Assembly (NCBI RefSeq): GCF_029227855.1
Contig: NZ_CP074356.1
Reading direction: 5' to 3' (one strand)
Length of the DNA: 64,000 nucleotides
Origin: Escherichia coli
GTDB taxonomy: Bacteria; Pseudomonadota; Gammaproteobacteria; Enterobacterales; Enterobacteriaceae
Shown here: positions 7,481 through 23,369 of the stretch, in pieces
Layout: every line of letters begins with the position of its first letter
Numbering within the stretch: the first letter of the stretch is position 1
Translations under genes and position numbers: made by a program
Notes under the pieces: model-generated
What the model saw: the letters and a program-made list of their open reading frames with translations, nothing else
Database searches by the model: none
What the model was told of the DNA's origin: nothing

Positions 7481-8032
7481 CTATCTTCTTAGCGATGTCT
7501 TTCTGGTATCACATTGGGTCGGTGCAATTATTTTTCCTTTAATACCCATTATGTTAAGAAATTCAGAAACAGCTGTAATCTCATTGTTTTTTTCATTCGT
7601 CTTGATCTTCCAAGGAATCTGACTGTGCATTATTGAGAACACACTAATAACGTGAATCGCTCCCTTGCGACGACTCTTGTCATAAGAGTACCGGAGCGTT
7701 TTTCCATCAATTGCAATGACGTCTTTATCATCTGAAGAATGGCAGTCAAGCATCCAGTTAATAAAGCACTCATGAAATTTTTCAGGACTGATACAGGATA
7801 CAACTCTGGCAATGGTATCGTGAACAGGAATACCATTATCAAAATCACCATATTGCTTCAAAAAATCGAGATGTGTTTCCCCAAAATCCTCTATATCTTC
7901 CCAGCCTTCTGCACCCGAAATAATGGCACAAATAGTCAACAGTAGAATATCCGATAATTTATGTTCCACTTTCCAGGCTTGTCTGTAATCGGGGGTAATA
8001 GAAATATGTTCCATCAATTTTTTAAATTCCAT
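7481..8032 (-). pseudogene. Truncated H-repeat-associated (ISAs1-family) transposase, N-terminal 5' fragment
   Basis: 183-aa ORF about 85 percent identical over roughly 170 aa to the N-terminus of the intact H-rpt ORF at 14075..15211, then diverges and terminates; shared upstream flank as well. Confidence 0.8.
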
Positions 8033-8617: not shown

Positions 8618-9103
8618 TCATATTTTTAATATAGCCCCATGAGCTATAGGATCAAAACCTTCTAACCATGAGGTGTTTTTATCGAATAATGCACCTGTTA
8701 TATTTATATCGCCATATCTATCACATAATAAATTAGCGCCACATAAGTCAGCACCAGAAAAATTTGAATCTTTAACGTCTGCATTGCAAAAGGTTGAATT
8801 AGTTAATATAGCACCCTCAAAGTTTGCACCTATTGACCTTGAATTACTAAAGTCACTTCCAGTGAAATCTGAGTTATTAAGAATAGCGTTCATCAGAGCC
8901 GCATTGCGAAAGACAGCATTTCTAGTTGATGTATGTTGAATCATTACATTTCTTAAATGGGAATTTTCAAATTTCGCCCCATCAAGACAATAACCATTGA
9001 GGATGGCACGATGTAGATCCATCCCGCTAAAATCATATCCAGCAAGAGTGGTACTATCTATATCAAGAAATTTATTGGTTATTAAAAACGCGATTCTTAT
9101 CAT
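8618..9103 (-). CDS. Pentapeptide-repeat protein, predicted Rhs immunity protein (positional equivalent of K-12 ydcD)
   Basis: 161 aa; about 20 consecutive A(D/N)(L/F)xx-type pentapeptide repeats ([15 protein letters not shown] ... [15 protein letters not shown]); start codon overlaps the rhs stop in ATGA arrangement; AT-rich. Confidence 0.8.
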
Positions 9104-12100
9104 CTATTCCCCCAATCATCTAACTCCGGAAAAATTTGGCTAAACGGATATAGTGGTGCCGATAATGGACGCGTACCTGGCCGCTCAGGAGGAAGTTTAT
9201 CACATAACAGACCCGCAACCATCCTGTGATTACCATTAACAATCACATTCCCATCCATATCAACCGGTGGTGCTCCACTACCATCTTCCAGCATTTGTAC
9301 GTAGTGAGCTACTACGGGTACTGAGACTTTTTGTTGTACTGTCAACAAGGGACTGTTGGCCACAACCATCCTGATGTTTTCAGGTGTCGCAGGTAAACAT
9401 TTAGTCTTCTCTTGACTAAAGGTATCATCCCACAATTTTGTTAAACCCATCACTGCCTGTTGTCTGTATTTATCCATGGGGTCAGCAATCAACCAAGATG
9501 GACCTGACTGCTCTATGGAATCTTCTCCGGAGAGACCCAACGGATCTATCTTAGTAGTTGGATTCAATGGATACTGATACAGGTTCCATGCACCTCTTAG
9601 CCCAATGGGATCCTGGGTGATATACCGCCCCTGCAACGGGTCATAGTACCGGTTGCGGTTATAGTACAGCCCCGACTCCTCATCATACTGCTGCCCCGGC
9701 AGACGGTACGGCTGTTGCAGTTGCTGCGCGCTGGTTTCGCCCAGCAGGTTTCCCCACTCGTCATACTCCCCCTGCCACGCCGTTTCCCCTACCGGGCTGA
9801 TGAGCGCCTGCGGCAGCCCCCGGTGGTCGCAGTGGTAAAGATGAAGTGTCCTCTCCGGGATGTATTCCGCCTCCATCTGGTTTTTCATCTGTTCCGCCGT
9901 CAGCCCGCACTGCTGAAGCCATGCCTCACTCTCCGCACTCACCGCACCCGCGCGCAGTTCCCGCTCCAGCCTCCCCAGCATCACCGACAGCTCCGCCGGT
10001 AGCGTCACCCCCGTGTCCTCCTGCAACACCTCCGCCAGACTCCGGTGCCGCGCCTTCGCCTGTTCACCATTCTCTGTTTCGATTCTGATGAGCGGCGTGA
10101 AGCTCCCCGGCTGGTATACCGTCTGGATACGCGTGGTGCCGGTCTGTACCGTCGTCAGCCTGTCACCGTCCCACCCGTACCAGGTCTCCTCCGGTTTACG
10201 CGACAGCGACATCCACCCCGTCAGGTCACGCTCCCGCCGCCACACCCGTTTCCCCGTCCGGCGGCCCAGCGGGTCATAGAGGTAGCGGCTCTCCACCTGT
10301 GGTTCGCCGTGCTGTATCCGCGTGTAGAACACCAGGCGGTGCTGGCTGTCGTAATGGTAGTGGTGGGTCCGCTCGTCGTGCATCCGGATAACCCCTTCCG
10401 GGATACGATCCGTCTTCTCCGCCAGCCTGCCGTATTCATCGTGGCGGTAGACATAGTGCGCATCCTCCGCGATGCGGTTATCCGGCCACGCCGTGAAGGT
10501 GCTGTCCGGGTGCAGTTCCGGGTCCGGCAGCCGGTTTCCTGCCGGGTCCGTCGCATACGGGATATCGATATCCAGGTTCGCCGCCGTGGTGTGAACGCCC
10601 GTCAGTCTTCCCGTGTCGCTGTAACGGTACTTCCGGCTCTCCTGCGGGCCGCTGATGCGCACCAGTTGCCCGTTATCGTTCCACGTATACTCACGGTCAA
10701 GCTGCGGAAGGTTCAGGTGCCTGCTCCGGAGCTGCCCTGTGAGGGTGTACGCCATGGCCTGTTCGTACCCCGCTGTACTGCCCGCCCCGCCGAAGCTGCG
10801 GGCCGTCTCACGGTGCAGCCGGTCCCGCGTGTACTCGACCAGCGGCGTTCCGCCCAGCTTCATCCCCGCAAGATAACCGCTGCCATACGTCAGCCACTCC
10901 ACCGGCGGCAGACCGTCCGGCTCCTGACGGGTCGCCAGCCCCTGTTCGCTGTAGACGTGCCTCGTCTCATGCTCCCACAGCATCTCCCCCGTCTCCTGGT
11001 TCTCCACCGTCTGCCGTTCGCCCGTCAGGCGGCCTTTATCGTCATAGCCGTAGTGGACCGCCACACGGTGGCCTTCGCTCAGGTGGCTGATTTCTGTCAG
11101 CCAGCCGTGGTCGTCATACTGCCACTGCTCCGCCGGGTCGCCGTTCACCGTCCGGTGCGTGATGCGCCCGGCGTCATCGTAGTACCACTGCGTGACCTGC
11201 CCCTCATCCTCGCTGCGGATGAGCTGCCCTGTGGCGCTGTACCGGTAACGCTGTGTCCTGCCGTCAAAGCCGCGCTGCTCCGTCAGCCTGTCCACCGGGT
11301 CATACCGGAACGTGGACTGGCTGCCGTTCTCGTTGGTCAGCACGGTGATGCGCCCGGCGGCGTCATACTCCATGCTGCGCGTCAGTCCGCCCTGCGTGGT
11401 GCTGACGGCCTTTCCCCACGCATCATACTGTGTCTCACTCCGGCTGCCGTTCGGGGCAATGATAGCGGTGAGGTCGCCTGCGGCGCTGTACTCATAACGG
11501 GTTTCACGTCCCTGCGCATCCTTCTGACTGACCAGTTGACCACGCGGGTTATAACTGCTGTAAGTGCTGATGCCTTCCTCCCGGTGAACCGCCGTCCTCT
11601 GACCGTACCGGTCGTATTCATACCGCGTCGTGTACCCTGAACAGTCCGTAAATGCCTGAAGCTGACCGTACCGGTTTCGCGTTATTCTCCGCCTCACCCC
11701 GGTTCCGTCTTCCACCGCACAGGGCAGGCCACTGCGGGAAGAATCATAAAACCAGCGCGTAATGTTACCGTTGCGCGAGACCTCTTCCGCCAGCCTGCCC
11801 TGACGGTCATATTTCCGGCTGCGGCGCAGCCCGTCCGGGTACGTCACTGACGTCAGTTGCAACTGGTTGTTGTAACCATACCGTACCGTCCTGCCGTCCG
11901 GCAGTATCACTGAAGTCAGCTTTCCCGACGCCATATGCAGCCGGTACTCCGTCCGCCGTCCCGCCGCATCCGTCTGCGCCTTCAGCCTCCCCGCCTCATC
12001 ATACTCGCTGCGGGTGATGCTCCCGTCCCCATGCTCCTTCTTCACCACCCGCTTCAGGCCGCCCTCGCCCTCCGTGTACAGCACCTCCCGCCGGTTCAGG

Positions 12101-13311
12101 CTGTCCGTGATGGTCACGCGGTCCTGCCCGTACTCAAAGCGGTAGTCCAGCCCCTCCGGGTTGACCTGCTCCGTCACCCGACCGGTATCATCATACCGGT
12201 AGCGGCTCTCCGGCCTCCCCGCATAATGGTGCGCCACCATCCGCCCGGCGTGCTCCGCATCATAAGTAAACCCGCGCACCTGCGTCCCGCTGCGGTCATA
12301 CACCGCCCGCAGTTCTCCGCTGGCCGTGTACGTGTAGCGCGCCAGCGGCGCAGTCGGCAGTTCATCCAGGTATGCCAGGTCGTGTGTCAGCCATACCGCC
12401 TCCAGCCGGATACCGTTATCGGCACCGTACTCTGTACCGGTGGGCAGCGTGTCGGGGAAAACCTGAGAAGAGGAAACAGAACGGGGACTGGCCGGAGAAG
12501 ATAAAGAAGAGGCGCGCTGTTTACGGAAGGCTTTCGCCCGCTGCGCCTGTGTGGTCAGCGCCAGATGAAAACGGCGGCCCGCGCCGTCCGTCACCCCCGT
12601 CACCGCGCCCGCCGCTTCCCCCTCTGCCGCCCGGTGGAAGGCCAGCGTCCGCCCGAAGCTGTCCACCACGCCCGTCAGCACCCGGTATGCGGGCGGCTCC
12701 GGCGGCAGCACCTCGTCCGCCTCCGGCACCCGCTCCGGCCAGCCGAGTATCCACCACGGCCCCTGAAGGCTGTTTGTCGCCAGGTACACATGCGGGCTTA
12801 AGCGGAGACTCTCCGGCAGCACCTGCCAGAGCGCGCTTAGCGGCTGCGAACTGTGCTGCTCCGCCACCCCGCCCCTTGCCAGCCAGAACGACTCGCTGCG
12901 GCTGTAGCTTATCTCGCCGGGAAACAGCGGCTCAAAGTGAATGCTCCTGCCGCCACTGTCGTTGAGTATCAGTTCCCGCTCATGAACCTGTAAGCGGATA
13001 TCGAAGGGCGCTTTCCAGCCGGGACCAAACACCCCCACCGGCGCGGGTGTTCTGGTCCGGTAGCTGCTGTAGGCGCGGGAAAGAATAAACGGCAACGGGC
13101 CGGGCAGCGCAAGATCCGTCTCGCCCGGCAGCACCTTCGCACCCAGTAGCGGGTTCACCGGGTTACCCTTCTGCTCCTCCACCGGGCTGTTGGGACACAC
13201 CGAGCAGGCCACTCCCGTCGGCGCACCTATCAGCACCCCCGCTGAACCCTGCACAATATCCAGTCCCTTGCGGGTCATATCGCCCTGTCGCGCCGCCGGT
13301 TTTCCGCTCAT
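9100..13311 (-). CDS. Rhs polymorphic toxin, full length (PAAR-like N-terminus, YD-repeat core, variable C-terminal tip with ParB-like motif)
   Basis: 1403 aa; N-terminus [11 protein letters not shown]; long GC-rich YD-repeat core; core-end DPxGL motif (..DPIGL..KIDPLGL) followed by an AT-rich roughly 143-aa tip (about 9100..9531). Confidence 0.9.
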
Positions 13312-13731: not shown

Positions 13732-14097
13732 TCATGAAGGCCCGCAGCCAGCAAGGATTAGAGAAAGGTATTCATTCTTACGTCCTGCCCGCTTTTGCTT
13801 GCGTTTAATACCCGCTTTAAAGCTATTCTCTGCGGTCAGTAAATTCATCGCGATATGTCGACAAACTGCCAGATTTTCTCCCGCTTCTCCACGAACAATC
13901 TGGCATTCATCTTCCCGCATCCCCATATCAAGTCGCCAGTGCAGTTGATTTTCTACCGACCAGTGTGCTCGTGTTGCTTCCAGGAGTTCTTTCGCCGTAA
14001 GCGTCACCGAACTTATGTAGTAGCGAAGAATACACTTCTCTGATTTCACCGCTGTTTCTCCTTCCAGGGCAAGATTACGAAAGCCCGCTCCCCGCAA
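13732..14097 (-). pseudogene. H-repeat (ISAs1-family) transposase C-terminal fragment, diverged copy
   Basis: 121-aa ORF whose C-terminal 95 aa align to the C-terminus of the intact H-rpt protein (HWxVENxLHWRLD motif). Confidence 0.65.
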
Positions 14098-15211
14098 GGA
14101 CTGACGCCAGATAGTTTCTGTCCATGGCTGCTTTTCGCATCTTACGTCTTAACCCTGCCTTGAATACCTTATCATTCGTTAAAATATTAATAGCGATGTG
14201 CCGTATCCCTGAAAATAATTCTGCGGCGTTTCCTCTTCCTATTTTGCAGTCGTCTTCATTCATTACCACGTCCAGACGCCAGTGCAGCTTATTCTCCACG
14301 TGCCAGTGGTTTCGGATTGCTGTGGCGAACTTCTCTGCGGTTAAATCAGCAGAACTGATATAATATCTGACCGTCATTTCTGGCTCTTTCTTTTGTTCTG
14401 CTATTATTGACCGAAAGGAGACTGCCACGCATAATTTCTTCAGTCCTTTCCATTCAAACATTAAATCAATAAGTTCATCAGGGACATCACAAACAATGTG
14501 AAGACGGATTTCTTCTCTGCCGTGACTCTTTTCACTAATTGCGTAACTGTCATGCTCTGGATTATTTAATTCTTTCAGTGGGAATTTTTCCTCAAAGGCT
14601 TTATTTAGCCGCCCCTGGTTTCCTTTTACAGCGAATAAATAATCACCTCCCTGTTTTTGTATCTTCTCTGCAATATCTTTCTGGCAACCCATCGCATCAG
14701 TTGTGATGATTTTTCCTTTAATATCCAGCATGTTAAGAAGTTCAGGGATAGCTGTAATTTCATTTGATTTCTCATCCGTCCTGATCTGTCCGATGACCAG
14801 ACTGTGCATTGTTGAGAACGCACTAATGACATGAATCGCTCCCTTGCGGCGACTCTTGTCATAAGGATGCCGGAGTGTTTTTCCATCAATTGCGATGACG
14901 TCTTTATCAGCTGAAGAATGGCAGTCACGCATCCAGTTAATAAAGCACTCGTGAAATTTTGCAGGACTGATACAGGATACAACTCTGGCAATGGTATCGT
15001 GAACAGGAATACCATTTTCAAAATCACCATATTGCTTCAAAAAATCGAGATGTGTTTCCCCAAAATCCTCTATATCTTCCCAGCATTCTGCACCAAAAAT
15101 AACGGCACAAATAGTCAACAGTAGAATATCCGACAATTTATGTTCCACTTTCCAGGCTTGTCTGTAATCGGGGATAATAGAAATATGTTCCATCAATTTT
15201 TTAAGTTCCAT
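14075..15211 (-). CDS. H-repeat-associated protein / ISAs1-family transposase (intact)
   Basis: 378 aa, recognised as E. coli H-rpt (YdcC/YhhI-like) protein. Confidence 0.9.
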
Positions 15212-15557: not shown

Positions 15558-15932
15558 TTACTCTAATGGTTTTATTAATTGTAAATTTTTAAATGTCATG
15601 CTTAATAAGCCATCAGAAAAATAAAGAAAAAATTTATATATCCTTTTGTTTTTTAATTTCTTTATATACCCATTACTTATATTACCTGACTTGTGATTAT
15701 CGATTAACTCAGCAGAATCCATAGCGAACACTAAATCATCTACATCAGAAAATTCAACTATCATTTTTTCCCTAATGTTCTCATTTTTATAAATGTCAAT
15801 AAATAACGTCATGTTAAAATGAGATTCTTTGAATGTCGTTTTTACTTCTAACAAAACCCCATCATGCCAGTCAATTGAACTCACAATGTCAAAATCGCTC
15901 ATTATATAATCTCCATTATCCGTTTTAATCAT
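15558..15932 (-). CDS. Predicted immunity protein for Rhs copy-2 toxin (hypothetical, AT-rich)
   Basis: Start chosen at MIKTDNGDY so that ATG overlaps the toxin stop (ATGA coupling); very AT-rich; no recognisable domain. Longer alternative start at 15965. Confidence 0.6.
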
Positions 15933-18900
15933 GGAGTAACAACGTTTGCAGGTATTGACCACCAAAGAGGTGGTGCAAGTGAAGGTATAAATCGAATCAC
16001 TCTATATATAACATACCCTGCGCCAATTGTAGCACCAGTTGCAAGAGCCGCATCAGTAGTTGATAGCCCAGAGGTTTTGCATGACAGATCTTTACTTGGT
16101 TCTGGCTCGAAACCATATTTTTTTGCACATTTCTTAATGCTATTTGGTGCTGATGAGTAATCCTCACCATGGGACATACCTCCAAATTCCCCCATTACAC
16201 CACTCCCATTTTTACACTCCCAATGCAAATGTCTTCCGTCACCAACAGCATCGCCATCTATTCGGATTCGACAACCTTTACCACAGTCCTTCCATTTTCC
16301 TGAAGTATGAGCTAATCCCAATGGATCAATCCATTGCACAGGATTGTTCATAACATAACTGTACGGGTTTATTCCCCCCGCCAGCCCTATCGGGTCCTGG
16401 ATGATATACCGCCCCTGCAACGGATCGTAGTACCGGTGACGGTTATAATACAGCCCCGACTCCTCATCGTGTTGCTGCCCTGGCAGACGGTACGGCTGGT
16501 GCAGGTGATGCGGGTTTTCCTCATTCAGCAGGTTCCCCACTCATCATACTCCCCGCTCCACGCCGTATTGCCGTCTTCGCTGATGAGCGCCAGCGGCAGG
16601 CCCCGGTGGTCGCAGTGGTAAAGATGAACTTTTCGCGCCGGTGTGTATTCCGGCTCCACCTGTCTGGCCAGTTGCTCCACCGTCAGCCCGCACTGCGCAA
16701 GCCACGCCCGGCTTTCGTTACTCACGCGGTCTGCCCGGATTTCTCCCTCCAGCCTGTCCAGCAGCCGCACCAGTTCAGCCGGGAACACCACACCGTGCCC
16801 GTCCTCACTCCCTTCCGACTGTAACTTCTCCGCCAGGCTGCGGCGCTGCGCTTTCTCCCGTTCGCCGTTCTCTGTTTCGATGCGGATGAGTGGCGTGAAG
16901 CTTCCCGGCTCGTATACCGTCTGGATACGTGTGGTGTCAGTCTGCACCGTCGTCAGCCTGTCGCCGTCCCACCCGTACCATGTCTCCTCCGGTTTACGCG
17001 ACAGCGACATCCACCCCGTCAGGTCACGCTCCCGCCGCCATACCCGTTTCGCCATTCGCCGTCCCAGCGGGTCGTAGAGGTAGCGGCTCTCGACCAGTGG
17101 CTCGCCATGCTGTATCCGCGTGTAGAACACCAGGCGGTGCTGGCTGTCGTAGTGGTAGTGGTGGGTCCGCTCGTCGTCCGTCCGTATCACACCCGCCGGG
17201 ATGCGGTCCGTCTTCTCTGTCAGCCTGCCGTATTCATCGTGGCGGTAGACATAGTGCGCATCCTCCGCGATGCGGTTATCCGGCCACGCCGTGAGTGTAC
17301 TGTCCGGGTGCAGCTCCGGGTCCGGCAGCCGGTTGCCCGCCGGGTCCGTGGCATACGGGATGCGGATGTCCAGGTCCGGTGCGAGGGTGCGTACACTCGC
17401 CAGCCTGCCCGTGGCACTGTAGCCGTATTCCCGCGTCTGTCGCGGGCCGCTGATGCGCACAAGGTCGCCGTTGTCATTCCACCCGTAGTCACGGTCATAC
17501 ACCAGGCTGTTCAGGTGCTGGCTCTGTAACTGGCCTGCAGGGGTGTATGTGCTGGTCAGTTCGTATGCGGCATTACTGCCTGCCATGCTGCCAAAGCTGC
17601 GCACCGTCTCCCGGTGCAGCCTGTCCCGCGTATACTCGACCCGCGGCGTCCCGCCCAGCTTCATTCCCGCCAGGTAACCGCTGCCATAGGTCAGCCACTC
17701 CACCGGCGGCAGGCTGTCCGGCGTGACGCGGTTTGCCAGCCCCTGTTCGTTGTATGCCTGTTTCGTCTCATGCTGCCACAGCAGTTCCCCCGTCTCCGGG
17801 TTCTTCACCGTCTGGCGCTCACTGGTCAGACGGCCTTTATCGTCATAGCCGTAGTGGACCGCCACACGGTGGCCTTCACTGGTATGGCTGAGGGTGGTTA
17901 ACCACCCGTGCTCATCATACTGCCACTGCTCTGCCGGGTCGCCGTTCACCGTCCGGTGCGTGATGCGGTCTGCTTCATCGTAGTACCACTGCGTGACCTG
18001 CCCCTCATCCTCGCTGCGGATGAGCTGCCCTGTGGCGCTGTACCGGTAACGCTGTGTCCTGCCATCAAAGCCGCGCTGCTCCGTCAGGCGGTCCAGCACA
18101 TCGTAGGTAAATTCACTCCGGCTGCCGTTCTCGTTGGTCAGCGTGGTGACACGTCCTGCCGCGTCATACTCCATACTGCGCGTCAGCCCGCCCTGCGTGG
18201 TGCTGACCGCTTTTCCCCACGCATCGTACTGTGTCTCGCTCCGGTTGCCGTCCGGGGTGATAACGGCAGTCAGGTCGCCTGCGGCGTTGTACTCATACTG
18301 CGTTTCACGGCCCTGTGCGTCTTTCACCGAGGTTAACCGGCCACGGTTGTCATAGCGGCGGTAACGGCTGATACCTTCCTCGCGGTGGACCGCCGTCATC
18401 TGACCAAAGCGGTCGTATTCATAGCGGGTCTGGTAGCCCGAGCAGTCGGTGAACGCCAGCAACTGACCGTAGCGGCTCCAGGTCATCTGCCGGGTGCTGC
18501 CCGTCGCATCCATTGTCGTCGCCGGTAACTCACTGTACGCGTCATCGTAGCGGTAGCGTACTGTCTCCCCGCTGCGCGATGTCTCCGTTACCAGCCTGCC
18601 CGGTTCATCATATGCCCGGCGGCTCTCCAGCCCGTCCGGGGACACCACTGCCGTCACCTGGTTCCCGTCGTTATAGTAAAATTTCGTCTCCCGCCCGTCC
18701 GGTGTGGTGATGTCCGTGATATCGCCTGACACCACATTCAGACCGTACTCTGTCCGCCGTCCCGCCGCGTCCGTCTGCGCCGTAAGCCTTCCTGCCGCGT
18801 CATACCCACTGTGCGTGGCGCTGCCGTCCGCCAGTTCTTTTTTCACCACCCGCCTCAGCCCGGCCCCGCCTTCTGTATGCAGCACCTCACGCCGGTTCAG

Positions 18901-20088
18901 GCTGTCCGTGACGGTGATGCGGTCCTGCTCATACTGGTAGCGGTAACTCAGGCCTGCCGGGTTCAGCTGCTCCACCACCCGCCCCGCATCGTCGTAGCGG
19001 TAGCGCATCTCCGGCCTTCCCGCGTAACGGTGCGCCACCATCCGGCCCGGGTGCTGCGCGTCATACGTGAAAGCGCGCACCTGCGTATTGCTGCGGTCAT
19101 ATACCGCCAGCAGTTCACCGGCTTCCGTATACGTGTACCGCGCCAGTGGCGCACCGGGCAGATTCTCCGGGTATGCCGGGTCATGCATCAGCCACACCGC
19201 TGAAAGACGGATGCCCCTGTCGGGGCCGTATTCCGTACCGGGCAGTGTGTCGGGGAACGCTGAGGCTGAGAGAGGGCGGGAACGGTCAGAAGAAGATAGC
19301 GAAGAGGTGCGGGCCTCTTCCGCCCGCTGCGCCTGCGTGGTCAGCACCAGACGGAACTTCCGCCCGGCACCGTCCGTCACGCCGGTGATTTCCCCGGCCA
19401 GGTCACCGGCGGCCTCACGCCGGTACGTCAGCGTCTGCCCGAAGCGGTCCGCCAGCCCGGTAAGCACCCGGTACGGCGGCAGCGGCGCTGGCAGTACGTC
19501 CTCAGTGCCCGGCACCCGCTCTGACCACCCCAGTATCCACCACGGTCCCTGTGCGCTGTTGGTCGCCAGGTAAAGATGCGGGCTTAACCGGATATCCGGC
19601 GGCAGCGACGGCCACAGCCGTGCCAGCGTGTGGCCGTCCGGCTGCGCTGCCTTACCACCGCGAACCAGCCACATTGACTCGCTGCGGCTGTACACCGCCT
19701 CCCCCGGCAGCAGCGGCTCAAAGTGAATGCTCCGCCCGCCGTTGTCGTTGAGTATCAGTCCGTCATCACGTATCTGTAAGCGGATATCAGAAGGCGCTTT
19801 CCAGCCGGGGCCAAAAATCCCCACCGGCGCAGGCGTCTTCGTCCGGTAGCTGCTGTAGGTGCGGGAGAGAATGAACGGCAGCGGGCCGGGCAGCGCAAGG
19901 TCCGTCTCGCCGGGCAGCACCTTCGCCCCCAGCAGCGGATTTACCGGGTTGCCCGAAGTCATCCCGCCCGGACACACCGAGCACGCCACGCCGGTGGACG
20001 CGCCAATTCTTACACCTGCCGAACCCTGGACAATGGGACCGCCATACTGAGTCATATCTCCCTGACGCGCCGCTGGTTTTCCGCTCAT
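15929..20088 (-). pseudogene. Rhs polymorphic toxin copy 2, interrupted by a 1-nt frameshift between core (16525..20088) and DPxGL/toxin tip (15929..16540)
   Basis: 1187-aa core ORF ends ..EYDEWGTC while a separate 203-aa ORF carries the core end ([38 protein letters not shown]) and a Cys/His-rich tip. Rhs copy 1 has tttcccca where copy 2 has ttcccca (around 16531..16539). Confidence 0.8.
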
Positions 20089-20154: not shown

Positions 20155-22263
20155 TCAGTACTCTCTCATATCCGGCGTATCCTGCTTTTCATCAGGGGTC
20201 TTCGGTGGGGATTTCGAGGCTGCACAGTTCCAGTTAATCAACAGTGAGTCACCATTAACCTGCTCCTTACCCTGCAAATGAATTTTTGTGCCGTTGAGAA
20301 AAATTTGTCCGTCCTTAGTCAGCACCAGCCTTGCCTTACCACAGCAGAGTTCCAGATGCTCACCGGCGGAGTAAATCGCGGTCTGCCCGGTATCATCCTT
20401 TTTCGTTTTACCAACGGTGAAGGTAACGTTATTTCCGACTTTGACGTCATAACCCAGCCCGACCATCAACGACTTATGCAAACCGATCTGCGAGGACTGC
20501 ATCAGGGCCACCGAGGTGTTCATAATGCCACCTACCGTCGTCTGATACGCCACGCCCACGGTCAGCGCACGAACAAGTCCAATCGTTTCCACCTGAACAG
20601 AGCCCACTTTAATGATCTGGTTACTGCCCACCGTCTCTATCTGGTTAACGCCCACCGTCTGTATCTGATTGTTGGTAACCGCAATCACCTGATTGTTGCC
20701 GATGGTCTCAGCATGGCTGTTTATCACATCCGTGGTTCGGTTATTCAGCACCTCAGTGTTCATGTTCTTCTGCGCGTGGATGTAGACCTGTTCTTTCCCT
20801 GTCGCATCGTCAAACTTCAGTTCATTAAACCCGCTGCCCTTATAGGTTTTCGAACGAATGGTCATCTGCGTCTTTGTTCCCGGCAGGCTGCCGGGGGTGC
20901 GGTTTTCCTGGTGGTAGGTACGCCCCATAATAATCGGCTGGTCCGGATCGCCGTTGAGGAAGTCCACAATGACTTCCTGACCCACACGCGGTATCGCCAG
21001 GTTGCCAAAGCCGGTGCCTGCCCACGCCTGTGCCACACGGATCCAGCATGAACTGTCCTGGTTTGACGGGTTATAGCGGTCCCAGTTAAATTTCACCCGC
21101 ACGCGGCCATGTTCATCACAGAAGATTTCTTCTCCTGCCGGTCCCGTCACGACGGCGCTCTGCGGGCCGTCCACCAGCGGTTTCAGCAACGGCTGTGGCC
21201 GCCATGTTCTGTCTGCCGGTATTACCGCAAAGTGGTTATTCAGCGTGGTACCTGAACCCCTGCGTCCCGGCACCGCCTGCGGCTGCTCGCCGTGCAGTTC
21301 ACTTGCCACCACCTGCCATTCCCGGTTCAGGTTCGCCTGCGGATGCCCCGTCAGCGCAATTCGCCGTCCCGGCCATATCTCCGGCGAACGGCTTGTTCCG
21401 CGCGCCACTTCTGCGTTGTTTCGCCAGCCATCCATCTGCCAGCAGGCAAAGTTCTGCCCGTGGGCACCCTTGAAACGTCCGGGGTAGTCATACACTTCAT
21501 ACTGTGTGCGCTGGTAATCCTGGTGCTGGCCTTCCTGATCAAAACGCCCTGCCCAGCCGGGTCGTTTAAAGGTGTAGTCTTTGGTCACCACGGAAGATGG
21601 GCGGATTTGTGCGCTGTAGCGGAACTGGCTGATGCATAGGGTGCTCACCTCGGTACGGGTGTTCGGATTCCAGGGGATCTCAAAGGACTCCGGCAGATAA
21701 CGCACGGTGTCGCACAGGACCAGGCTCTGGTCGGTACTTTTTTGCGCGTGCTCCTCATAAAAGAAGATGCCTTCCTCCGCCGCCATCCGGCACAGGAAAT
21801 CGTAATCGGTTTCGCCGTACTGGACACAAAACTCACGGGAAGGATGCGGCTCGCTGAACAGCGGACTCCACTCGGTCACCCCGTTTTCTTTCAGGATCGT
21901 CGCGAGTATGCTTTCGATGTCCTCATTCTGGAAGATACGGAAGTTCTGGCGCAGCCCTGTGCGCCACAGCGGTGGGCACACCTTCATGCTGTACAGCATC
22001 TGGTTTTTGTCGTTCTCCCCCAGTTCAAACCAGGTCACCACACCTTTCACCCGGCGCTGTACGTCATCGCCCTGCCATACCGTCAGGTAGGCCATTTTGT
22101 CCAGCACCTGCGCAAATTCAAGGGAGAGAAACTGCTGGCTGACCAGAGAGAGATCGAGGGAAAAGAGCGAAGAGAGTGACTGGTTCAGATGAAAGGAGAC
22201 CACCGCAAACGCGTCCGGTGGCAGGCCGTCCACTTCCAGCGTGAAACGTAATCCGGTTGACAT
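20155..22263 (-). CDS. vgrG: Type VI secretion spike protein VgrG
   Basis: Start taken at MSTGLRFTLEVDG with GGAGG RBS (702 aa); recognised VgrG gp27/gp5-like sequence including repetitive beta-helix segment (VGVNQIETVGSNQIIKVGSVQVETIG); 66 nt upstream of the Rhs copy-2 start. Confidence 0.9.
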   Translation of the reverse strand: MSTGLRFTLEVDGLPPDAFAVVSFHLNQSLSSLFSLDLSLVSQQFLSLEFAQVLDKMAYLTVWQGDDVQRRVKGVVTWFELGENDKNQMLYSMKVCPPLWRTGLRQNFRIFQNEDIESILATILKENGVTEWSPLFSEPHPSREFCVQYGETDYDFLCRMAAEEGIFFYEEHAQKSTDQSLVLCDTVRYLPESFEIPWNPNTRTEVSTLCISQFRYSAQIRPSSVVTKDYTFKRPGWAGRFDQEGQHQDYQRTQYEVYDYPGRFKGAHGQNFACWQMDGWRNNAEVARGTSRSPEIWPGRRIALTGHPQANLNREWQVVASELHGEQPQAVPGRRGSGTTLNNHFAVIPADRTWRPQPLLKPLVDGPQSAVVTGPAGEEIFCDEHGRVRVKFNWDRYNPSNQDSSCWIRVAQAWAGTGFGNLAIPRVGQEVIVDFLNGDPDQPIIMGRTYHQENRTPGSLPGTKTQMTIRSKTYKGSGFNELKFDDATGKEQVYIHAQKNMNTEVLNNRTTDVINSHAETIGNNQVIAVTNNQIQTVGVNQIETVGSNQIIKVGSVQVETIGLVRALTVGVAYQTTVGGIMNTSVALMQSSQIGLHKSLMVGLGYDVKVGNNVTFTVGKTKKDDTGQTAIYSAGEHLELCCGKARLVLTKDGQIFLNGTKIHLQGKEQVNGDSLLINWNCAASKSPPKTPDEKQDTPDMREY

Positions 22264-23369
22264 AGCAACCTCCGTGAAAATGAATAATAATCCGCACATA
22301 TTGCATGTACAACATGTCGGGCGGATGAGATAAGCGAGTCGACATCTGGCGTTACCGGGGAATATCAAAAAAATGTCATGGTTATGTGATGATTTAGTCT
22401 GGGATTTTACTTCAGAGAAACGGGTGTCTGTTTAGTCAACAAAATAATCACAAACGCAACGGATGGGTTCTCGACGTTATTCACGACAGGCTCGTACATT
22501 ACAGCGAGTAATAAAAACCTGATATGCAAAGTCAAACCAATATTCATAATGTCTTTTTATTCACAACAATAAATAATTCAATAACAATCATTGAAATGAA
22601 TGATGGTTTGTATAAGGAATATACGCTACCGCCCCACCCTGATAACATGATCTGCACATTGCCATCTTAACGTCGTTAAACACTGGCTTAATAGTGGATA
22701 TTTAAAATTAGGAATTTATTAAATTCACCTGATGAATATCATAAGCAAATAGCATAGAAAATAATGACAACTCCCCCGAGGGGACCATTTCCAAAGCACT
22801 GCACCACCACCTGGTGCCCGGATGATCTTGCTTCAGTGGTAAGAGTACCTGATTCATTGTTCCCAAAATGGTGTTTTCCCGGGCCCCTCCAATAATGTGC
22901 AACTCTCACGTGATAATCTATTGATTAGGTTATATTAAGAATCAATATTTGAAATACATCCATTTTCTTGAATAAATCAACATGTTTATTTATCAATTGC
23001 TGTTTTAGCTCTGACTCATCAAGCTCTCCATATTTGTCCTACAGATAATCGCGAATAAATACAGAGAACGCCATTTATCCTTTTAGCATACCTGCCGGAT
23101 ATTTTTATTTGTATTAATATTAATTGCATCTCCAACTCCGGGCATATCCATCATTAAAAACATTTTGAGATTATAGAATGCCTGTGATAACAACTGAAAC
23201 ATCTGCACAATGTGAATAGTTAGTTTCTTTTCAGAGGAAATGAAATAGACAAGCTGAATGAAAGGGAGAGTGATATAAATTAAAAAAATAACATGAATCT
23301 AATTAATTACGTCCATCATTGTGGATAAAGTTACTGAATAATAAATAACATAATCTTCTGGTATCCCAC

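Follow-up and report, generated by a model that had tools for sequence, protein, structure and literature searches.

The window analysed here, 64,000 nucleotides of the Escherichia coli chromosome (contig NZ_CP074356.1 of assembly GCF_029227855.1), contains an rhs island in which an intact Rhs protein of 1403 residues (Rhs copy 1) ends, behind the core-end motif DPLGL, in a variable tip of 143 residues. The tip belongs to a large family of C-terminal toxin domains with a predicted ParB/sulfiredoxin (Srx) fold and a nucleotide-phosphate binding motif. The next gene encodes a pentapeptide-repeat protein (PRP) of 161 residues, and related PRP genes lie directly downstream of the toxin domain in many bacterial phyla, where the two proteins diverge together. 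This supports an immunity role for the PRP.

A first-pass annotation, made from the sequence alone, had described the locus accurately in coordinates and features, including DPLGL, the 143-residue tip of low GC content and the 161-residue open reading frame (ORF) coupled to rhs by an ATGA overlap. It had further proposed that the tip is a ParB-like DNase and that the PRP is its immunity protein, a DNA mimic occupying the DNA-binding surface of the toxin. The conserved position of the PRP gene and the co-divergence described below support the immunity role. The DNase/DNA-mimic mechanism is probably wrong, and the toxin is probably not a DNase.

A family of C-terminal toxin domains overlooked by Pfam

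No Pfam or NCBIfam model matched the tip. ParBc (PF02195), by which the first-pass annotation had proposed to recognise the domain, was silent even at E<=10, and none of 83 family members matched it at E<=0.1; the sole Pfam trace among these was ddrB-ParB on the conserved motif (E 0.34). A word-indexed protein search with the tip alone recovered only 4 relatives. By an exhaustive profile search of 1.84 billion representative proteins, 381 members were obtained at E<=1e-3, 190 of them at E<=1e-10. In every match listed, only a few residues separate the domain from the C-terminus of proteins that range from 73 to 2388 residues, and this placement is the signature of a polymorphic-toxin warhead. 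The carriers comprise Rhs proteins, DUF637/filamentous-haemagglutinin proteins of the CdiA type, Hint proteins, wall-associated proteins and standalone orphan modules.

Conserved positions were derived from an alignment of 83 sequences of the 103-residue core of the domain (alignment A2), whose numbering is used below. G60 and H62 are invariant, and R63 (95%), A66 (93%) and N61 (81%) follow closely; Q26, S30, G44 and I57 are, like R63 and A66, conserved in at least 90% of the sequences. In the E. coli core the motif reads G60-N-H62-R63-M-V-A66, and the near-invariant residues are all present. Position 59 varies between D, E, N and G in the family and is N in E. coli (NGNHR) compared with the consensus DGNHR, in which the N is replaced by H in 13% of the members. 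A D-W-G-N end is common at the C-terminus. D53, D96 and D99 are conserved at just 73–76%, and the family has no invariant acidic metal-binding set. Most of the toxin domains are basic (median pI 8.7), whereas the E. coli core is acidic (pI 5.6).

The toxin core is predicted to adopt the ParB/sulfiredoxin fold

When AlphaFold2 (AF2) was given alignment A2, the core was modelled with a mean pLDDT of 95.4 and a pTM of 0.89; with only 4 sequences the model was poor (pLDDT 47). According to the A2-based model, the toxin core has the characteristic alpha/beta fold of the ParB/Srx (ParB-NTPase) superfamily. Structural comparison (PDB entry and comparison value in brackets) placed it next to Atu1540 (2hwj, 5.3), plant sulfiredoxin (6ky4, 5.3), SbnI (5ujd, 5.2), the free serine kinase SerK (5x0b, 4.8), human sulfiredoxin (1yzs, 4.6), PadC (6ryk, 4.5), KorB (8qa8, 4.5), pNOB8 ParB-N (5k5d, 4.1) and Spo0J (1vz0, 3.6). 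Foldseek against the PDB gave nothing significant, though 2hwj ranked first and 5k5d third; against AFDB50 it returned 71 matches at E<=1e-3, many of them titled ‘ParB/Sulfiredoxin domain-containing protein’. Sequence-profile searches of the PDB with the family alignments A1 and A2 produced chance matches only (E>0.2). Using a human Srx query sequence confirmed to be identical to the PDB chains, hhalign paired KVQSLV..PPIDV..GGCHRYAA of Srx with VQxYV..PPIxV..GNHRYxA of the family (E 7e-4, probability 26%). Because PF02195 was negative for the tip and for the 83 members, the fold assignment rests on structure and not on the ParBc hidden Markov model (HMM).

The segment G60-N-H-R63-x-x-A66 is the GxxRxxA phosphate-binding P-motif (Box II) of this fold. 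Together with the AF2 model and the structural comparisons, it shows that the ParB/Srx guess of the first-pass annotation was right at the level of the fold. ParB proteins hold DNA with a separate helix-turn-helix (HTH) domain, whereas the tip corresponds to the nucleotide-binding N-domain alone and has neither an HTH nor any other domain for DNA binding. Nucleoside triphosphates (NTPs) are bound or used by the characterised members, namely CTP by ParB and KorB and ATP by Srx, SerK and SbnI (PMC12704722).

The downstream gene encodes a protein of 25 pentapeptide repeats

The 161-residue protein matched Pentapeptide (PF00805, E 1.8e-8) and Pentapeptide_4 (PF13599, E 1.8e-6) of Pfam, and it is indeed, as had been noted at first, made almost entirely of pentapeptide repeats. 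Their number was underestimated at about 20: residues 18–142 form 25 consecutive in-register pentapeptides, 23 of them with a hydrophobic centre residue. The repeats are of the tandem A(D/N)LXX type, with a coil period of 20 residues, corresponding to about six four-sided coils. The possibility of a chance ORF was rejected on the Pfam matches and on the conserved PRPs downstream of related toxins.

Within the PRP family, H31, R32 and R51 are near-invariant and lie at the same corner of coils 1 and 2; the best-conserved exposed residues are basic. The proteins as a whole are acidic, with a median net charge of –7 and a median pI of 4.8 (charge –5 for the E. coli PRP; pI range 4.8–5.2). A C-terminal cap, T144-x-W146-P-x-G-F-x-P, is also conserved.

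Among the NCBIfam models, MfpA (E 2.5e-9) and Qnr (E 4e-8) matched the PRP, and a weak similarity to QnrB1 structures was also seen. The bit scores of 37.2 for MfpA, 32.3 for Qnr and 33.5 for QnrB are far under the respective cut-offs of 360, 240 and 460 and therefore reflect generic repeat similarity, and the PRP was rejected as a Qnr/MfpA orthologue on these grounds. The PDB chains matching the PRP include no PRP–toxin complex.

Toxin domain and pentapeptide-repeat protein are paired across phyla

The two closest relatives of the E. coli locus, L002 and an orphan module of Citrobacter portucalensis (L003), are followed by PRPs of 160–163 residues whose genes overlap the toxin gene by 4 bp, and this stop/start overlap was seen again in many related loci. 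A PRP also lies downstream of a 1552-residue metagenome Rhs (L006) and of a 2288-residue TcdB/Rhs-type toxin (L009); in all, the pairing was seen in three close and two distant relatives before the survey of genomes is counted. In the latter case the 150-residue PRP ORF (9864..10316) had not been called in the source annotation; uncalled ORFs of this kind could make automated neighbourhood surveys undercount the pairing.

To survey the pairing, one genome per species was scanned for 100,044 species, which yielded 80 loci from Neisseria, Aggregatibacter, Psychrobacter, Pseudomonas, Achromobacter, Budvicia, Bacteroidota, Bacillota, Myxococcota, Planctomycetota, Verrucomicrobiota, Gemmatimonadota and Actinomycetota. 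Using an HMM built from five known partner PRPs, the gene directly downstream was found to encode a matching PRP in 62 of the 80 loci. It was HAD-like in 9 loci and something else in 6, and in 3 the contig ends downstream. Complete proteins matching the HMM at E<1e-25 account for 52 of the 62 PRPs; most of these have 158–167 residues. The pairing holds for Rhs, CdiA-type, Hint and orphan carriers alike, and also in Gram-positive bacteria without a type VI secretion system (T6SS).

For 50 pairs, pairwise identities of toxin and PRP were correlated (Pearson r 0.64; in a Mantel test, 0 of 2000 label permutations reached this r). Mean identity was 35% for the PRP and 44% for the toxin, indicating that the PRP diverges faster. 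Correlated identities together with the faster divergence of the PRP fit the inheritance of both genes as a cassette with a fast-evolving cognate immunity protein. A description of this toxin–PRP pairing was not found in the searchable literature.

Some loci deviate from the common arrangement. Among the toxin domains of the scan, those of L010 and L012 (Neisseria), L011 (Aggregatibacter), L013 and L014 are the nearest to the E. coli clade (42–61% identity). Their partners are a shorter PRP variant of 130–179 residues that is rich in Cys, Asn and Phe, has NCxF-like repeats and matches the HMM weakly (E 1e-11 to 1e-17), which suggests a rapid turnover of PRP subtypes. Downstream of the toxin domain at L007/L008 (metagenome Rhs P0049), L075, L076 and L087, unrelated genes were found. 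They encode a helical-looking protein of 96 residues and proteins of 158, 255 and 306 residues, with no family match where tested, and are candidates for further immunity types.

HAD-type proteins take the immunity position in sister clades

Rhs tips ending in ‘..QPWTAPLT..NLQIQP’ (L040 from Paucibacter, L015 from Mitsuaria, L090, L091 and L092; Rhs P0026, P0058 and P0022) are followed not by a PRP but by a HAD protein of 115–118 residues. The gene of this mini-HAD overlaps the toxin gene by 4 bp in 4 of the 5 loci and is located 185 nucleotides downstream in the frameshifted L015. The catalytic motifs DVDDT, CWSSGG, KPN and IDDQ are all invariant in the five proteins, which match Pfam DUF705 (E 9.5e-5) and the ‘viral phosphatase’ model TIGR01684 (E 1.6e-6).

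A second HAD lineage occurs in seven Bacteroidota loci (L068, L069, L080, L081, L083, L086 and L089). Here the ParB/Srx-like proteins are standalone, have about 128 residues with a DGHHRY motif and an extra C-terminal helix, and are each followed at a distance of 16–85 nucleotides by a protein of 152–158 residues. The L068 member, the one run against HAD_SAK_2 (PF18143), matches it over the full length (E 1.5e-22), and the six others share the DIDGV start. This pair may represent an intracellular toxin–antitoxin-like or kinase–phosphatase module. In Pedobacter (L086), the pair adjoins unrelated-looking unannotated genes.

The presence of two HAD lineages in the immunity position, together with the phosphotransferases among the members of the fold, suggests that the toxin makes a phosphorylated product which the HAD proteins remove. 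To this extent the HAD-like proteins in the immunity position hint at phosphoryl-transfer chemistry of the toxin. The idea would also fit the remark of Kaljevic et al. that a missing acceptor could not be excluded for the toxin ToxB (bioRxiv 10.64898/2026.05.05.722872).

Comparison with known systems

ToxB, the one ParB-fold toxin that has been characterised and hence the nearest analogue of the tip, is a CdiA-CT toxin with the P-motif G105-N106-H107-R108, described in a preprint of May 2026 (Kaljevic et al., bioRxiv 10.64898/2026.05.05.722872). It binds ATP specifically and hydrolyses it slowly, and the R108A variant loses both ATP binding and toxicity. ToxB causes compaction of the nucleoid but neither DNA damage nor SOS induction, and it lacks DNA binding. 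As a dimer, the immunity protein iToxB occludes the active site and touches the bound nucleotide with Arg, His and Trp side chains. The preprint leaves the fold of iToxB undescribed, does not contain the word ‘pentapeptide’ and never mentions Rhs.

Like ToxB, the E. coli tip is a toxin of one domain with the ParB-NTPase fold that forms the C-terminal end of a polymorphic toxin, and its G-N-H-R motif (tip residues 100–103) is the same. The base-contact residue and the Gly of the P-motif are 30 residues apart in both (D75–G105 in ToxB, S30–G60 here), compared with 27 in Caulobacter ParB (S74–G101). Both toxins are also similar in size (about 150 and 143 residues), have a short N-terminal entry segment, putative in the tip, and are directly followed by a small cognate immunity gene. 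Unlike the E. coli tip, which follows DPLGL on an Rhs protein (T6SS), ToxB is located behind VENN on CdiA (type V secretion system), and among 255 toxin-family proteins no VENN was seen at a ToxB-like spacing. Moreover, ToxB was found via PF02195, which misses the family of the E. coli tip, and it has D75 at the base-contact position where the E. coli family has S, as does ParB (S74). The search with A2 names no protein of Stenotrophomonas, Mycobacteroides or Erwinia, with only about a quarter of the proteins carrying names, and tblastn of plasmids gave one Pseudomonas match. By comparison of their descriptions, ToxB and the E. coli tip are probably members of sister families.

ParB-domain toxins had been predicted before. 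Tox-ParB, which was defined in silico only, is carried by Rhs and FilH proteins, has a DGHHR motif and was predicted to be a nuclease (Zhang, Aravind et al. 2012, PMC3482391); no further paper using this name was found. Compared by description, it resembles the present family in the ParB fold, in the position at the C-termini of RHS and filamentous-haemagglutinin proteins, in a DG[H/N]HR-type motif (NGNHR in the E. coli tip) and in a wide phyletic spread. Its partners differ: Imm20, Imm27 and Imm-SuFu are given for Tox-ParB with no mention of pentapeptide repeats (PMC3482391), whereas the partners found here are PRPs, HAD-like proteins or others. From ParB and KorB, the E. coli tip is distinguished by the absence of an HTH/dimerisation domain, and from Srx by the absence of the catalytic Cys. 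In contrast to the ParB/Srx superfamily in general (sulfiredoxin, SerK, SbnI, the ParB N-domain, KorB and PadC), the E. coli family has its own C-terminal extension with the D-W-G-N end and occurs in the context of secreted toxins.

Qnr, MfpA, McbG and AlbG fold into DNA-like right-handed beta-helices which protect gyrase. The E. coli PRP belongs to the same family of right-handed quadrilateral beta-helix repeats, is likewise acidic and would likewise protect against a toxic agent. Unlike them, it scores below the cut-offs of their models, is shorter with its 161 residues, and is coupled to and co-diverges with a protein toxin. Genetic coupling and co-divergence with the toxin imply that the PRP probably binds the toxin and not the target of the toxin.

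A further parallel is Tse6/Tsi6a of Stenotrophomonas rhizophila, an unrelated-looking Rhs tip with a predicted immunity protein similar to one that is annotated as pentapeptide-repeat (preprint of July 2026, bioRxiv 10.64898/2026.07.13.738213). As described, this pair also combines an Rhs C-terminal toxin with a PRP-like predicted immunity protein, with orthologues on Rhs, HINT and two-partner secretion (TPS) carriers in distant phyla; in contrast to the present family, however, its authors see no similarity to ParB/Srx and call the domain rare (37 strains). PRPs have also been noted as unexplained neighbours of GH-E Rhs toxins (PMC5714182). TseG of Pantoea was considered as a parallel and rejected, as the PRP is there part of the effector and not an immunity protein.

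Proposed mode of action of the toxin and its immunity protein

Building on the established anatomy, fold, motif, family and co-diverging toxin–PRP synteny, we favour, with slightly better than even confidence, an NTP-dependent ParB-fold toxin whose PRP immunity protein binds it directly over the nucleotide pocket. Cleavage at DPLGL would free the 143-residue tip and yield a single-domain ParB/sulfiredoxin-fold enzyme of 103 residues, in which Q26, S30 and G60-N61-H62-R63-x-x-A66 would form the pocket for the nucleotide triphosphate. The recipient would be poisoned via NTP binding and hydrolysis, or via phosphoryl transfer, without cutting of DNA. The PRP, as a beta-helix of six coils, would protect the producing cell by binding the toxin and blocking the nucleotide pocket, with H31, R32 and R51 as candidate contact residues. 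Both the NTP dependence of toxicity and the binding of the PRP over the pocket are proposed by analogy, and synteny and co-divergence are what points to a direct PRP–toxin interaction. With S at the base-contact position, as in ParB, the nucleotide specificity may differ from that of ToxB.

Several points weigh against this proposal. Pfam ParBc does not detect the toxin family, so the relationship to ToxB may be no more than distant and the chemistry of the two may differ. Acidic PRPs facing mostly basic toxin domains are still compatible with mimicry of nucleic acids. Since most polymorphic toxins are nucleases, prior expectation favours a DNase, and for Tox-ParB a nuclease was indeed predicted (Zhang et al. 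2012, PMC3482391).

A more far-reaching proposal, which we regard as doubtful, would unite the PRP and HAD clades. The ParB-fold polymorphic toxins, i.e. this family and possibly ToxB, would be NTP-dependent kinases acting on a conserved cellular target, for instance a nucleotide, a metabolite or the end of a nucleic acid, and two kinds of immunity would exist: a PRP, as in E. coli and most loci, which plugs the nucleotide/substrate site or imitates the substrate, and a small HAD phosphatase (mini-HAD or HAD_SAK_2) that erases the modification. If true, this would account for the slow ATP hydrolysis by ToxB in vitro and for its puzzling mode of killing, and it would assign a defined function to a large clade of PRPs.

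In a specific version of the enzyme idea, a kinase or phosphotransferase like Srx, SerK and SbnI would phosphorylate an essential target such as a nucleic-acid end, a metabolite or a protein, the PRP would block the toxin or mimic its substrate and the immunity enzyme of the sister clades would remove the phosphate; this we consider unlikely. The HAD-like immunity proteins could work by binding alone. Furthermore, the five mini-HADs are closely related (72% mean column identity), and the invariance of their motifs is therefore weak evidence. No acceptor substrate is known, and the E. coli clade is paired with a PRP and not with a HAD protein.

The mechanism put forward by the first-pass annotation is likewise unlikely. 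It holds that the tip is a ParB-like DNase and that the PRP, a beta-helix with the shape and negative charge of DNA, lies in its DNA-binding groove, comparable to MfpA and Qnr on gyrase. In addition to the charges of the two partners, the frequency of nucleases among polymorphic toxins and the prediction for DGHHR ParB-domain toxins (PMC3482391), it could draw on the GH-E (HNH-type) Rhs toxins, which have PRP genes as neighbours and for which no other immunity gene was detected (PMC5714182), as PRPs might be general mimics of nucleic acids. However, neither half of the mechanism is supported by the present data. The tip is a nucleotide-binding domain only, with no HTH or other DNA-binding module that the PRP could occupy. 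Its conserved residues are those of the NTP P-motif, whereas the aspartates D53, D96 and D99 are too variable for an invariant metal site and position 59 is N in E. coli. ToxB, which has the same GNHR, causes neither DNA damage nor SOS induction and does not bind DNA. Finally, the E. coli tip core is itself acidic, and the basic residues H31, R32 and R51 on the surface of the PRP are not DNA-like.

It is very unlikely that the PRP instead shields the target of the toxin (gyrase, a topoisomerase or another DNA-handling machine) in the manner of Qnr, MfpA, McbG and AlbG and makes no contact with the toxin. The weak similarity to the MfpA/Qnr models and QnrB1 structures, and the perturbation of nucleoid organisation by ToxB (bioRxiv 10.64898/2026.05.05.722872), would agree with such a role. 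The similarity amounts to only 32.3–37.2 bits against cut-offs of 240–460, however, and the PRP with 161 residues is shorter than the profiles of MfpA (about 183) and Qnr (211–218). The PRP outpaces the toxin in divergence and tracks its lineage across phyla, as is usual where a cognate partner is bound directly. In sister clades, unrelated folds occupy the immunity position, and iToxB works by direct binding.

That the pair has no toxin–immunity function at all, the E. coli tip being a decayed relic or the PRP a T6SS accessory like the TagAB-type PRPs, is extremely improbable: position 59 departs from the consensus (N for D), Rhs copy 2 of the island is frameshifted, the Rhs of strain KE55 is interrupted by ISEc31 and PRPs are known as T6SS accessory proteins, but the Rhs copy 1 ORF is intact with all near-invariant residues, position 59 is variable throughout the family, the locus is conserved at >=99% in 143 genomes, and the PRP tracks the toxin domain on every carrier and in Gram-positive bacteria that have no T6SS.

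Implications for pentapeptide-repeat proteins and ParB-fold toxins

PRPs are numerous, few of them have a known role, and those which do mostly protect gyrase. Here a conserved clade of PRPs with about 160 residues is placed in the position of a cognate immunity gene beside a toxin domain. The clade spans Pseudomonadota, Bacteroidota, Bacillota, Myxococcota, Planctomycetota, Verrucomicrobiota and Actinomycetota, and the pairing across phyla suggests that a large group of little-understood PRPs serves as immunity proteins. ParB-fold polymorphic toxins as such are already known; undescribed in the searchable literature are the large family which Pfam does not detect and its conserved PRP partner. 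This family is bigger and more widespread than the ‘rare’ CdiA-ToxB group and is missed by the models of both Pfam and NCBIfam. The HAD-phosphatase-like immunity genes provide a concrete lead on the chemistry of ParB-fold toxins. Of 5426 complete E. coli genomes, 143 (about 2.6%, urinary isolates included) carry tip and PRP gene at >=99% identity, and this frequency makes the system easy to study.

Anatomy of the locus and its genomic setting

The window covers an E. coli chromosomal rhs island with nhoA-yddH-pptA on one flank and the yncG/ansP side on the other. On the minus strand, the gene order is VgrG, the frameshifted Rhs copy 2, ISAs1/ISEc1 genes, the intact Rhs copy 1, the 161-residue ORF and an ISAs1 fragment. 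The features are listed in the table.

Table 1. Features of the rhs island in the window, with positions counted from its first nucleotide.
Feature	Position	Strand	Evidence
Rhs copy 1, intact 1403-residue Rhs/YD-repeat toxin carrier: N-terminal region, YD shell, DPLGL, C-terminal tip	9100..13311	-	ORF list
DPLGL core-end motif, Rhs autoproteolysis/demarcation site ahead of the variable tip	9532..9546	-	translation; GC fall here
Tip residues 1-40, not part of the conserved toxin domain: variable linker or putative entry helix	9412..9531	-	unconserved in family alignment A1
Tip residues 41-143, 103-residue toxin core with predicted ParB/Srx fold	9103..9411	-	
G-N-H-R codons, tip residues 100-103 = core residues 60-63, phosphate-binding P-motif GxxRxxA	9223..9234	-	alignment
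161-residue pentapeptide-repeat protein (PRP), predicted cognate immunity gene	8618..9103	-	Pfam, coupling, synteny
ATGA, overlap of Rhs stop and immunity start	9100..9103	-	read from sequence
VgrG, T6SS spike, upstream of both Rhs genes	20155..22368	-	NCBIfam TIGR03361 E 5.4e-188
Rhs copy 2, frameshift right after ...GEYDEWG	15929..20088	-	ORF 16525..20088 (1187 aa) resumes as ORF 15929..16540 in another frame

The first 270 residues of Rhs copy 1 match the NCBIfam model RHS_core (NF041261, E 6.5e-156). In RefSeq the protein is named ‘RHS element core protein’ and the product of the next gene ‘pentapeptide repeat-containing protein’. Translation of 9100..9546 (-) gives exactly 143 residues after DPLGL, including the 24-residue stretch that bears the motif. 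The core (9532..13311) has a GC content of 0.640, the tip (9103..9531) one of 0.452 and the following gene one of 0.346, compared with 0.502 for the window as a whole. For tip residues 18–38, a helix was predicted with low confidence by the four-sequence model, and residues 1–40 may, by analogy, be likened to the ‘cytoplasm entry’ segment of ToxB.

The VgrG gene is located upstream of Rhs copy 2, which IS elements separate from Rhs copy 1; its position upstream of the Rhs pair indicates a T6SS delivery route. The frameshift in Rhs copy 2 represents either a pseudogene or a sequencing error. The second ORF of this copy (15929..16540) contains DPLGL and a tip unlike that of Rhs copy 1, in which a Tox-WTIP domain (PF15654, E 4.7e-13) is recognised. 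Directly 3′ of this tip lies an AT-rich ORF of 135 residues (15558..15965 (-)), which had no NCBIfam match and is presumably the immunity gene of the Tox-WTIP tip.

Transposase genes of ISAs1/ISEc1 (H-repeat) lie between the Rhs copies (13732..15211 (-)), and behind the PRP gene lies a truncated gene of ISAs1 (7481..8032 (-)). In strain KE55, the orthologous Rhs is additionally interrupted by the ISEc31 element mentioned above. The rhs island is under remodelling by IS elements.

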